The notes under the pieces were generated by a model. It ran no database searches, had not been told where the DNA came from, and saw only the letters and a list, made by a program, of their open reading frames with translations. From contig CAKKNE010000004.1 of the NCBI GenBank assembly GCA_918797485.1, positions 930,001-994,000 on the forward strand: a stretch of DNA of 64,000 bases. The letters are read 5' to 3'. Within the stretch, counting starts at the first letter, position 1. Each line of letters starts with the position of its first letter. The stretch is from Pelagomonas calceolata (taxonomy: Eukaryota). Positions 3,846-55,237 of this stretch are shown piece by piece. Position numbers and translations under genes: made by a program.

Positions 3846-3867
3846 CTAGCGTCCTGTAAGACACTAG
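3846..3867 (-). promoter_or_regulatory. CTAG-bounded intergenic motif
   Basis: CTAGCGTCCTGTAAGACACTAG between divergent genes; exact core CTAGTGTCTTAC on the minus strand. Confidence 0.7.
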
Positions 3868-52084: not shown

Positions 52085-52767
52085 ATGGGGTTAAACTCAG
52101 CGTCTCTAGGAGCCATGAATGATGCAAAGAAAGCACCGCTGGAGCGATAAGACCGTCGGACGTCCAGCGAGCGAGTACAGCTCTTGCTGCAGCGAGGCCG
52201 CCTGTACATGCTACAAGCGCGCCCGCGGGCCGCAAGACTGAGAGCCGGCACCGCTAGCAATCCTGCGAGCCCGCCGGCAACGCTCGGAGGCCGCCGGCGA
52301 CGCTCACAGAGGACGCGCCAACGAGACGCCCGCTCGAGACCGCGAACGAAGCATCACACCCCTCACCACACAGGTTCTCCCGCTTCGTCGAAGTCGGACG
52401 GATCGTCCTCGTGAACTACGGCCCCGACGCCGGCAAGCTCGCGACGATTATTGATATTGTCGACGGGAACAAGTGCATGATCGACGGGCCCGTGCCGAAG
52501 ACGGGCGTGGCGCGCCAAGTCATCCCCTTCAAGCGGCTCGCATTAACTGACATCGTCATCGAAGTGCCCAAGAGCGCTAGGCAGAAGACGCTCGTGAAGG
52601 CGTGGGACGCCGAGAAGGTCGAGGAGACGTGGGCCGCCACCTCCTGGGCGAAGAAGTTGGCAAGAAAGAAGGTGCGCGCGTCGCTGACGGACTTCCAGCG
52701 CTTCCAGCTCATGGTCGCGCGGAAGCAGAAGGCGGCATTGGTCAAGGCGCAGCTCGAGAAGATGTGA
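52085..52767 (+). CDS. RPL14: 60S ribosomal protein L14 (eL14); probable intron 52090-52373
   Basis: MG|FSRFVEVGRIVLVNYGPDAGKLATIIDIVD...LTDFQRF. First exon inferred. Confidence 0.92.
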
Positions 52768-52895
52768 GGTAGACGGGTAAAAAAAAATACTAGTGATTCG
52801 CGTCGACGGCGTGGTGGGGGGCGTCTTCCGGCGACAGGTGCGACTCGTGATAGGAGTACACCGTCACGGTGAAAAATTAAAAAAACATCACGACG

Positions 52896-53711
52896 TTAGA
52901 AAATAGAAAACTCCTCGCGCACATCCGACTCGCCCGGGAGGCGGCTCCGCTCGACCGCGGTGACGGAGCCGTCCGCGCGGACGAGGAACACCGTATGCGT
53001 CCGCGTGCCCCAGAACTTGTTCGAGGAGACCTCGACGGGCGGCACGCAGACGTAGCAGAGCCGGTCCTCGACGCTTGGAGGCATGCGCGTCGGCGAGAGC
53101 GGTAGCTTCGTGCCGTCGGCGAGCACATCAAACAACGCCTCCACGAGGGCGTCGTCCGCAGCGTCGCGGAGCGCCTCGGCGAAGCGTGCGCGCCCCCGCT
53201 CCGCCGTCGACCAGGCCGCGTCCAGGCCGGGCGCGGCGTTCGTGATCACGCTGATCCCGCGCGGCATCTCTGCGACACCACCGCCGCGGTTGCACGCGTG
53301 CCAGGCGTCTTCACTTGATCCGAAGACGGCGTTGAAGCCCGCGTATTGCGCGCCGTCGCGGACGGCGGCGCGCGCCGCTTCCTCTGGCGTTGACTCGCCG
53401 AGCAGAAAATTCGCGCAGAGCGCGCCGCGCGACGGGGCATCTGGCGGCGCTTGCTCCGGCTCGCGGACGTTCAGAATACACGACCAGCGTCCACCGTCAG
53501 ACATCCCTAGCCACGTGCCACCTCCACTTATATCGCGGCCGCCGACCACCTTCTCGTTGTCGCGCCAGCGCCCGAGCCGGTCCGCGGGCCTTGATAAGAT
53601 CTCGTCGCGGTTCGACGCGATGACGAGGCGGTAGCGTTTGGCGAGTTCGTGCTCCCACTCCTCACAAACCTCGTCCGGCGCCGGCGCCCGCCACACAAAA
53701 ACCAGACACAT
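52896..53711 (-). CDS. TANGO2: TANGO2 / NRDE-family protein
   Basis: N-terminal MC, IASNRDE, GRDISGGGTWLG, SRG, YAGFN, GTRTHTV. Confidence 0.92.
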   Translation of the reverse strand: MCLVFVWRAPAPDEVCEEWEHELAKRYRLVIASNRDEILSRPADRLGRWRDNEKVVGGRDISGGGTWLGMSDGGRWSCILNVREPEQAPPDAPSRGALCANFLLGESTPEEAARAAVRDGAQYAGFNAVFGSSEDAWHACNRGGGVAEMPRGISVITNAAPGLDAAWSTAERGRARFAEALRDAADDALVEALFDVLADGTKLPLSPTRMPPSVEDRLCYVCVPPVEVSSNKFWGTRTHTVFLVRADGSVTAVERSRLPGESDVREEFSIF

Positions 53712-53870
53712 TCAGAGGTCGTGCACAATCTCCGCGCCGAGCTCGTGACCCGCGAGCCAGATGAAGAGCGTCAGTAAACCGGCGATGGACGTGAGCACGA
53801 TGCAGAGGTCCCAGGGACCGTCGGGCTCGTCCTGCGGTCGGCGGCGCGGCAGTCGCGGCTTGGGGGGCAT
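53712..53870 (-). CDS. 52-aa single-TM microprotein ORF abutting TANGO2
   Basis: MPPKPRLPRRRPQDEPDGPWDLCIVLTSIAGLLTLFIWLAGHELGAEIVHDL*; start context CCAAAAACAC-ATG; TGA immediately followed by the TANGO2 ATG. Confidence 0.65.
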   Translation of the reverse strand: MPPKPRLPRRRPQDEPDGPWDLCIVLTSIAGLLTLFIWLAGHELGAEIVHDL

Positions 53871-54034
53871 GTGTTTTTGGGCTGTGCTGGGTGGTGGTGT
53901 TGTGCAGCGGCAGTTATGGCCGACGAGTGGCGCTGTCGTGTTAGATACAGCGAGCAGCGATGCGAAGCGTCACTTCTACGGTCCGGAGACCTACTGCTTC
54001 GATCTCTACGTCCACTTTTTTCACCCTGGGATTG

Positions 54035-54056
54035 CTAGTGTCTTACAGACCGCTAG
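54035..54056 (+). promoter_or_regulatory. CTAG-bounded intergenic motif
   Basis: CTAGTGTCTTACAGACCGCTAG, about 165 and 162 bp from the divergent ATGs at 53870 and 54218. Confidence 0.7.
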
Positions 54057-54217
54057 CCCTCTGAAATTCAGGGTCAGCTTTGTTCCGGGCGCGCGACTCA
54101 AAAGGCGGGCACGCGAGACTCCCTAGGCCAGTAGCCCTCCGCCTAAACGGCGCCCGCCGCGAACGCCGCGAGAAAACGCCCCGAAACCGCCGACCAATAA
54201 TTGCCACAAAAATCTCC

Positions 54218-55237
54218 ATGGCCGAAGACGCCGCGCCGCCAGAACTCCCGCCCCGCGAGGCCGCCACCCCACCAGAACTCCCGCCCCGCGAGGCCGTCGA
54301 AAGCCTCTCCCTGGAAGAGGACGTCGCCGACCTCGACGCGGCCGCGGCCGACGAAGGCTACGAGGAGGAAGCCGCCGACGCCGCCGAGGAGCTGCAGGAG
54401 GCTCCTCTGACGGAGGAGGAGGAGGAGGAGGCCCGCGGCGTGGCCCAGCATTTGCTGCTCAACGCGCCGCCGGGCGAATTCACAGAGCTTCTCGACGATG
54501 TCGCCTCAATTACGCCGGAGCGGGCGCTCGAGGGCGGCTTCGTGAACGGCGTGGCGCGCGCGCGCAACGCCCAGATCCTCGAGGCCGCGATCACAGAAGA
54601 CGGGGCGCGCGTCGTCTTGTGCCGCGAGGCGGAGGTGACGCCTACTTCTTATAGAGATGCAAACGGCAAGCTGTACGACGTCGACCATGCTACCCTCGAA
54701 GCCATACCGGTTGAGGACGTGTATGACGAGGACGCTGTGCCCGAGTCACTGAAGAGCGCGAGAGACGACCTCCAGAAGGCATTGGCCGTGTACGCCTCCA
54801 CAAGATACCTGGGCGAGGGCCACGCCGCCACATTTGTGGTAGGAGACGCCCTGAAGTGCGTCGTGCGCGGCGCGCGGAAGAACCTTGGAAACTTCCACTC
54901 GGGAAGCTGGGCGTCGGCCTGGACCCTCACGCCGTCTTCCGAGGGCTACGACGTGCAGGGCATGATACAGGTACGAGCCCACTACTTCGAGGACGGCAAC
55001 GTGCAGTTGTATGCGACGAAAGAGGTCACGGCGTCGACGCGAGACGTCTCCCAGTTAATCGAAGCCAGCGAGAACGAATTGCACGCCGGCTTGGAAGCGA
55101 TGTACGGCGACATGGCCGACGCGACCTTCAAAGCCTTACGTAGAGTGATGCCCATCACGAAGCTCAAGATGAAGTGGTCCGTGGACGCCTTACGGCTCAA
55201 GGGCGGTTTAACCAAGGCGGCGGCGGAGGCGTACTAA
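54218..55237 (+). CDS. CAPZA: F-actin capping protein alpha subunit
   Basis: LLNAPPGEF, NFHSGSWASAW, HYFEDGNVQL, FKALRRVMPITK. Confidence 0.92.
   Translation: MAEDAAPPELPPREAATPPELPPREAVESLSLEEDVADLDAAAADEGYEEEAADAAEELQEAPLTEEEEEEARGVAQHLLLNAPPGEFTELLDDVASITPERALEGGFVNGVARARNAQILEAAITEDGARVVLCREAEVTPTSYRDANGKLYDVDHATLEAIPVEDVYDEDAVPESLKSARDDLQKALAVYASTRYLGEGHAATFVVGDALKCVVRGARKNLGNFHSGSWASAWTLTPSSEGYDVQGMIQVRAHYFEDGNVQLYATKEVTASTRDVSQLIEASENELHAGLEAMYGDMADATFKALRRVMPITKLKMKWSVDALRLKGGLTKAAAEAY

Follow-up and report, generated by a model that had tools for sequence, protein, structure and literature searches.

Green and red algae, fungi and Cryptosporidium have all been described as expressing two proteins from one nuclear messenger (PMC11761812). 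The closest described systems are the bicistronic loci of green algae (PMC7896298, PMC11291117, PMC11892635), in which one promoter serves an unspliced transcript that carries a short conserved upstream open reading frame (ORF1) and a longer second one (ORF2), the frame of the second being free relative to the first and no AUG preceding that of ORF2. These loci use leaky scanning, and in some of those of Auxenochlorella the stop and start codons overlap (PMC11291117). Here we describe a locus of the same layout in a 64,000-nucleotide stretch of contig CAKKNE010000004.1 (assembly GCA_918797485.1, positions 930,001 to 994,000 of the forward strand), which we refer to as the window and in which a 52-codon frame (ORF1) stands on the minus strand directly before a gene of the TANGO2/NRDE family. 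The locus is likely a bicistronic nuclear gene, that is, an unspliced unit of about 1.13 kb in which ORF1 is followed 0-2 nt later by TANGO2 and from which the two are likely made as separate proteins.

The first-pass annotation of this DNA had pointed to the bicistronic mRNAs of green algae as a precedent, and the layout is indeed alike, but the comparison holds as an analogy only, the host being likely a stramenopile and not a chlorophyte. The spacers differ as well, with medians of 40-183 nt in the green-algal loci (PMC11291117) as opposed to 0-2 nt here, and the pattern of a weak start context for ORF1 and a strong one for ORF2 is not clearly seen at this locus. Two further kinds of system invite comparison. 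In CDC26/TTM3 (PMC11291117) and SLC35A4/STREMI a conserved, functional small protein is encoded upstream of an enzyme or larger protein on one mRNA, an arrangement to which this locus is similar; unlike transcripts of the CDC26/TTM3 type, ORF1 belongs to no known family and was found in a narrow clade only, its pairing with TANGO2 being absent from a more distant relative (L006) and not deeply conserved. The termination upstream ribosome-binding sites (TURBS) of caliciviruses and influenza B (PMC5972666) share with this locus a stop and restart within a few nucleotides and a UGGGA upstream, but here the UGGGA lies at about twice the influenza B distance, is fixed by codons and is not accompanied by conserved structure.

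A literature search, which covered few subscription papers, turned up no bicistronic or polycistronic genes in the nuclei of stramenopiles or pelagophytes and no report of a TANGO2 gene with an upstream open reading frame (uORF). TANGO2 or NRDE terms are absent from the main text of PMC7896298 and from seven supplementary files each of PMC7896298 and PMC11892635, although unlabelled gene lists there could hide an orthologue, and no such label occurs in 11 of the 17 supplementary files of pelagophyte proteomics (PMC13284251).

The upstream frame and its conservation

ORF1 occupies 53712..53870 on the minus strand, starting at 53870 and encoding 52 amino acids up to a TGA at 53714-53712. The stop-start junction TGA-ATG (53709..53714, minus strand) has a spacer of 0 nt in the window, such that the ATG TGT of a 271-codon frame (53711-52896, minus strand) begins immediately past the stop. 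The ORF1 peptide combines a variable basic N-terminus with a near-invariant DGPWDLC motif, one predicted membrane helix at residues 22-40, where the top 19-residue Kyte-Doolittle window reaches 2.42, and a C-terminal HDL, and its GC content at third codon positions (GC3) is 0.87 as compared with 0.82 in TANGO2. A small frame with a basic N-terminus, one helix, high GC3 and a TGA abutting the next ATG TGT is what the first-pass annotation had described, and all of this is confirmed from the sequence. Its further remark that ORF1 shares the start context of the glucokinase gene does not hold; an AAAACAC is common to both but is out of register by one base, and the bases at -3 and +4 are A and G in glucokinase and C and C in ORF1.

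The second frame, ORF2 (52896..53711, minus strand; 271 amino acids), encodes a TANGO2/NRDE protein, matching PF05742 with an E value of 1e-50 and 173.7 bits against a cut-off of 22.6, and has no intron, the reads over it showing no joints. It has the Met-Cys start of the family, with C2, the NRDE motif at residues 34-37 (N34-R35-D36-E37) and N158. That NRDE/TANGO2 proteins begin with Met-Cys, as had been stated beforehand, is borne out by 73 of the 76 fetched proteins that carry the clade's NRDE motif.

Chance could by itself produce a stop-start adjacency. Counting ORF1-TANGO2, there are 12 pairs in the window in which an ORF of at least 35 amino acids ends between -4 and +10 nt from an ORF of at least 100 amino acids, so that adjacency alone is unremarkable. 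The claim rests on transcript data and on conservation. One other arrangement of this kind, a 46-aa hydrophobic ORF at 19032-18892 (minus strand) lying 1 nt before a 281-aa ORF, was considered as a second candidate and rejected as likely spurious, since it contains a look-alike of the promoter motif described below and a divergent gene begins 15 nt from its ATG.

Related loci were sought with the N-terminus of TANGO2 as the only query, so that ORF1 was not selected for, and the best 80 of 498 relatives were considered; the upstream DNA was inspected by eye in ten loci (L001-L009 and L020) and by tblastn with ORF1 in the remainder. The small frame proposed to lie upstream of TANGO2 in related species was found in five of these 80, exactly the five at identities of at least 74%, of which four are distinct (L004 being the same as L005). 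The order of the two frames is the same in all four distinct loci, and the capping protein and RPL14 neighbours are kept wherever the contigs of the relatives reach. The junctions themselves vary, reading TGA-gc-ATG in L001, TGA-ga-ATG in L002, TAG-c-ATG in L003 and TAG-ATG in L004 (spacers of 2, 2, 1 and 0 nt), and contigs of the metatranscriptome X15 have 2-nt insertions at this point. In L006 (51% identity, 74% GC) TANGO2 occurs without ORF1 and among other neighbours, and the pairing is therefore limited to a close clade.

All three frames and two stop codons occur at these junctions, which excludes a conserved mechanism of readthrough or selenocysteine insertion. It had been suggested that reading through the TGA gives a membrane-anchored fusion of ORF1 to TANGO2, and the TGA might also be a sequencing error. 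ORF1 and TANGO2 share a reading frame in the window and L004, and one protein, P0199 (318 aa, on 2 contigs), joins the ORF1 start to TANGO2; this protein leaves the ORF1 frame in mid-helix, however, and so is a frameshift product. In three of the four distinct relatives the two frames do not match, and in two the stop is TAG. A fusion would also place Cys2 inside the chain, and neither the raw RNA reads nor the pieces of DNA run X3 show any other letter at the TGA. No selenocysteine insertion sequence (SECIS) or other Rfam family was found in 52700-54400, save one chance-level miRNA match (E 0.33), and the 3' untranslated region (UTR) is about 10 nt long. With 1- and 2-nt spacers and TAG stops in the relatives and no SECIS match, readthrough is largely refuted as a conserved mechanism, and a fusion or an error at this codon is extremely improbable.

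Selection was assessed by the ratio of nonsynonymous to synonymous divergence (dN/dS) from the DNA of the window and four relatives, in pairs that are not independent, with TANGO2 values against L002 and L004 taken from the first 149 and about 100 codons. The six pairs that can be formed from the window and L001-L003 give 0.03-0.14 for ORF1 as a whole and 0-0.02 for a 36-codon core, and comparisons with L004 give 0.23-0.34 and, for the core, 0.10-0.21; for TANGO2 the values are 0.15-0.27 in the six pairs and 0.13-0.19 with L004. Variable columns of ORF1 are distributed 4/3/21 over the three codon positions, pooled pN/pS is 0.079 in frame as opposed to 0.28-6.3 in the five other frames, and insertions and deletions are in frame and restricted to the N-terminus. 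Both frames are under purifying selection, and ORF1 is protein-coding; over its last 36 residues, as far as the stop, it is conserved more strongly than TANGO2.

The same protein is common in marine sequence data, the exact ORF1 protein being found on 108 contigs and another exact variant on 383. All 12 candidates for ORF1 from the protein collection match at 76-96% identity. Among 44 distinct variants fetched, 39 end in HDL, three in HDP and one in HEL, one being extended, and 42 start at the homologous Met, with no internal Met in those 42. TANGO2 is listed for UniRef and nr and ORF1 is not, and ORF1 is probably unannotated and absent from the reference protein set. It has no Pfam match, and its top PDB hit (E 0.26) and top Atlas score (0.87, to an unnamed cluster) come from a 52-aa query that is low-powered in such searches. 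No distant homologue was found: a profile search of 1.84 billion representatives gave two matches, both ORF1 itself, and a search among longer proteins (150-2000 aa, 7993 candidates scored) gave one. The long match P0212 was rejected as a frameshifted copy of ORF1. P0006, in which the stop is lost and reading continues out of frame, is a rare variant or an error; P0139, although in the same cluster, bears no relation to ORF1. The microprotein is likely membrane-bound and likely has its own function; its Arg cluster before the helix and its HDL tail, read by general sorting rules, hint at a single-pass protein that might reside in the endoplasmic reticulum with the basic N-terminus in the cytosol.

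The strong conservation up to the stop could also be read in another way, with ORF1 as a conserved-peptide uORF whose nascent peptide stalls the ribosome and controls TANGO2 in cis, the free protein having no part to play. Plants have sequence-dependent uORFs (PMC2075485), it is the 36 C-terminal residues that outdo TANGO2 in conservation, and ORF1 was found in front of TANGO2 only; the full hydrophobic helix with its basic N-terminal flank, on the other hand, fits a membrane protein. In L004 (L004:3001-3810; 74% identity), moreover, TANGO2 has an in-frame TAG at codon 103 while ORF1 is intact. In its cluster, truncated TANGO2 products (P0177, P0181, P0183, P0042 and P0179), of 102 aa (12, 1 and 1 contigs) and of 203 aa (7 and 6 contigs), outnumber the full-length form, a single 270-aa protein (P0176) on 1 contig; an intron could be the cause of the 203-aa end. 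The longest contigs of intact ORF1 variants match those of these TANGO2 products in length (43617, 35468 and about 10957), and the two therefore seemingly occur on the same contigs, as seen directly in L004 only. A broken TANGO2 next to an intact ORF1 speaks for an independent rather than a purely regulatory role of ORF1, provided that the decay is not very recent, as it could be in the L004 lineage; on balance we regard a purely cis-acting peptide as improbable.

TANGO2 of the close clade differs from the rest of its family not only in these truncating alleles of a sister lineage. At the putative equivalent of Lys166, a proposed active-site residue of the human protein (residue 169, 53205-53207; a position mapped by its spacing of nine residues past Asn157), all 13 close-clade sequences in alignment A2 have Thr, and the six others have Lys, and going by these residues the activity of TANGO2 may be changed in the close clade.

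Transcription and proposed translation of the unit

Raw RNA was taken from four stranded poly(A) short-read runs of one sample, 6-12% of each run being read. Minus-strand reads are continuous from about 54010 through ORF1, the junction and TANGO2 into bin 52871-52927, and none of the four runs shows joints, variant letters or a 5'-end pile-up within ORF1. The lack of any reads over 54068-54400 speaks against contamination by DNA. At the junction, where bin depth is 15-28 per run, the reads cross without joints or variants, which shows that the TGA is genuine and is retained in the RNA. Each of two RNA-like runs, taken from different studies, gave a single unbranched contig with no other letters, at 52889-54020 in X6 and at 52888-54021 in X7. 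On this short-read evidence both ORFs lie in one transcribed, unspliced unit with one 5' end region. The earlier proposal of one transcript with two ORFs is thus backed by stranded reads and unbroken RNA-like contigs, together with the purifying selection on ORF1 and the kept ORF order; a TANGO2 start site inside the small frame, an unconserved ORF1 or a sequencing error at the stop had been named as outcomes that would speak against it, and what was found is no 5' pile-up in ORF1, a conserved ORF1 and a TGA present in RNA.

That both proteins are translated from one and the same molecule is a step further, which we infer. Ribosomes would load at the cap and most would start at the ORF1 AUG, while a share would skip this codon, which has C at -3, meet no other AUG and start at that of TANGO2. 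TANGO2 needs a start of its own because Cys2 is the proposed nucleophile of the N-terminal nucleophile (Ntn) hydrolase fold, as described for the human TANGO2 structure (PMC13044924), and because the Met-Cys start is so widely kept; initiation at the TANGO2 AUG would give the free N-terminal Cys2 that this fold needs. TANGO2 would likely be the lower-output passenger of the pair. No ATG in any frame lies between the starts of ORF1 and TANGO2 in the five distinct loci, the window included, and within the window 54021-53712 has no ATG save that of ORF1. L002 and L004 have an ATG farther upstream (at -350 and -322). The -3 base of the ORF1 AUG is C in all five loci, as compared with a purine in 24 of 30 hand-picked starts of the window. 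At the TANGO2 AUG the -3 base is A in the three loci with 1- and 2-nt spacers, where it is provided by the stop codon and, being the favoured base, fits scanning initiation, and T in the two 0-nt lineages.

Several observations weigh against this picture. A weight matrix built from 30 unverified starts places the ORF1 context at the 67th percentile in four of the five loci and that of TANGO2 at the 20th-50th, and start-context scores run opposite to the green-algal trend; the leader, at 140-150 nt, is longer than the medians of 54-83 nt in green-algal bicistronic loci (PMC11291117). An ATG-free stretch such as this has a probability of about 0.2 (0.21 when synonymous codons are shuffled; 16 of 68 control windows), and the loci, with four distinct relatives only, are related to one another. 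Leaky scanning, moreover, leaves the 0-2 nt spacer unexplained. On the transcript side, that X6 and X7 are RNA is a guess, and a contig can run over two genes without their sharing a transcript. Summed depth goes from 128 in ORF1 to 88 at the junction, rises to 147 over the first 210 nt of TANGO2 and is down to 22 in the 3' part of that gene. Full-length molecules may therefore be in the minority, and the dip at the junction may leave room for a dispersed internal start.

The dip from 128 and 147 to 88, and the fact that short reads cannot phase molecules, would suit two monocistronic mRNAs merged by short reads, with the TANGO2 start site inside ORF1 and ORF1 on a short mRNA of its own. None of the four runs has a pile-up of 5' ends inside ORF1, however, a motif scan of the window finds no promoter motif there, and the synonymous sites of ORF1 drift freely, and we hold this arrangement to be quite improbable.

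The fall in depth farther downstream would fit two mRNA forms from one promoter, namely a dominant form of about 0.5 kb with ORF1 only, ending near 53496, and a minor 1.13-kb bicistronic form as the sole source of TANGO2. A possible internal 3' end by alternative polyadenylation would then lie at 53490..53500 (minus strand), near 53496. Fragment ends cluster at 53496 in two of the four raw runs (6 of 29 and 7 of 26), depth falls about 6.5-fold beyond 53440-53496, from 147 to 22, and two depth peaks lie within 54010-53496, as expected of paired 150-nt reads on a short RNA; 250-nt fragments from the 3' end, moreover, have a GC content (0.66) near that of the well-covered part (0.62-0.66). Depth nevertheless tracks GC (rho -0.67, p 0.001), with middle fragments at 0.70-0.74 GC, and this accounts for part of the fall. 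No poly(A) loose end is listed at 53496, as opposed to the one listed for RPL14 at 52796, and the X6 and X7 contigs are unbroken at 53496, those of RPL14 stopping near the RPL14 3' end. Two forms are a possibility that we rather doubt; they are compatible with the bicistronic explanation, changing proportions only and leaving the locus partially bicistronic.

The narrow spacer, for its part, suggests that TANGO2 may be made by termination-reinitiation on the AUG adjoining the ORF1 stop, as at viral stop-start sites, which is a sub-case of the bicistronic explanation. The spacer has stayed at 0-2 nt in all five distinct loci despite many indels in the leader and the ORF1 N-terminus, the U at -3 of the TANGO2 AUG in the two 0-nt lineages is a poor context for scanning, and the UGGGA pentamer, the TURBS core (PMC5972666), is present in all five loci. 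The pentamer is, however, about 98 nt upstream, whereas the TURBS region of influenza B measures about 45 nt (PMC5972666), and Trp-Asp codons dictate the pentamer. Covariation gives no sign of a structure, one of 35 predicted pairs having a double change (covariation term -0.08), nor is the ORF1 core less diverged at synonymous sites (0.45-1.17) than TANGO2 (0.35-0.64). Reinitiation past long ORFs is described as rare (PMC5972666), and in a compact genome short spacers may need no mechanism. A TURBS element was rejected here, the UGGGA being too distant, codon-forced and without conserved structure. Reinitiation is accordingly a tentative and on the whole doubtful account of TANGO2 synthesis; within the bicistronic explanation leaky scanning is somewhat favoured, with termination-reinitiation a serious second.

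Promoter-associated motif, transcript ends and neighbouring genes

A promoter-associated motif, CTAGC...GTAAGACACTAG, lies at 54032..54057 (minus strand), about 10-25 nt upstream of the transcript 5' end. In the general form CTAG-N(8-15)-ACACTAG it has 10 copies in the 64 kb (at 3846, 21482, 23813, 25396, 38248, 39240, 54056, 56172, 59779 and 61129), each 35-245 nt ahead of an ATG, and it is also present upstream of ORF1 in three relatives (L001:554, L002:336 and L003:141), while none was found in L004 or L006. Summed contig depth in DNA run X3 is about 62,000 in the motif bin as compared with about 540 in the adjoining bin. A promoter role is probable, and the motif is likely a genome-wide core promoter element of this alga. 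The first-pass annotation had noted that the motif is centred with respect to the upstream ATG; its centre at 54044 (54056-54032) is indeed equidistant from the ORF1 ATG at 53870 and the capping-protein ATG at 54218, but this centring does not recur in the relatives.

The 5' leader (53871..54021, minus strand) is about 140-150 nt long and is ATG-free over 151 nt. In X24 the 5' ends cluster at 54008 (6 of depth 16), and hardly any reads extend above 54010. At the other end the 3' UTR (52888..52895, minus strand) is very short, about 10 nt, and the likely poly(A) site near 52888 sits beside a U-rich tract; the contigs end at 52889 (X6) and 52888 (X7), no poly(A) loose end is listed there, and a T-rich tract past the stop is present in L003 and L004 as well.

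On one side of the unit lies the actin capping protein alpha gene, which is divergent from it, and on the other RPL14, which is convergent with it. Where TANGO2 and RPL14 meet, the 3' UTRs of both are very short (52767-52898), the RPL14 poly(A) site being at 52794-52796, and in L001 (L001:1680-1815) the TANGO2 stop is directly within the RPL14 3' end region. In L006 the frame convergent on TANGO2 (L006:1633-2439) is instead one of tandem amino-acid repeats, with a unit of about 30 aa that includes GGITFGNEA. The 5' part of the capping protein alpha gene (54218-54400) has zero depth in all four raw RNA runs despite the intergenic region it has in common with the ORF1 unit, and the promoter region between the two may act one way under the sampled conditions. 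The capping protein also has an acidic N-terminal extension of about 67 aa, which solved relatives lack but L001 and L002 retain.

The organism is likely a pelagophyte stramenopile and not a green alga. GC content in the window is 0.58-0.67, and Pelagomonas has been described as having 63% GC, six nuclear contigs and few introns (PMC9481584). The sequence is eukaryotic and marine, being present in poly(A) RNA runs and in seawater metatranscriptomes. Several ORFs of the window, judged by eye, open with a signal-peptide-like stretch followed by a transit-like stretch with Phe or Leu, and a signal peptide followed by a Phe/Leu transit-like stretch is the pattern of secondary red plastids (PMC4329603).

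Possible meaning for pelagophytes and for bicistronic expression

The locus holds a real, conserved and probably unannotated microprotein gene in a transcribed unit with TANGO2, of a kind that is known, in a lineage for which no earlier case was found. A broader picture, speculative and in our view unlikely as a whole, would have stramenopile picoalgae possess nuclear bicistrons with a 0-2 nt stop-start junction and coupled reinitiation without a viral-type TURBS, as a genome-wide class missing from annotation; at this locus the orphan microprotein would be essential and TANGO2 a recent passenger that is being lost in sister lineages.

If the bicistronic explanation is true, the range of nuclear bicistronic expression would come to include what is likely a pelagophyte stramenopile, and the locus would add an orphan membrane microprotein that is common in marine data and more conserved than the adjoining TANGO2. 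The natural spacers of 0, 1 and 2 nt, together with a lineage in which TANGO2 is broken, would then form a comparative series for leaky scanning as against reinitiation in a cellular mRNA.

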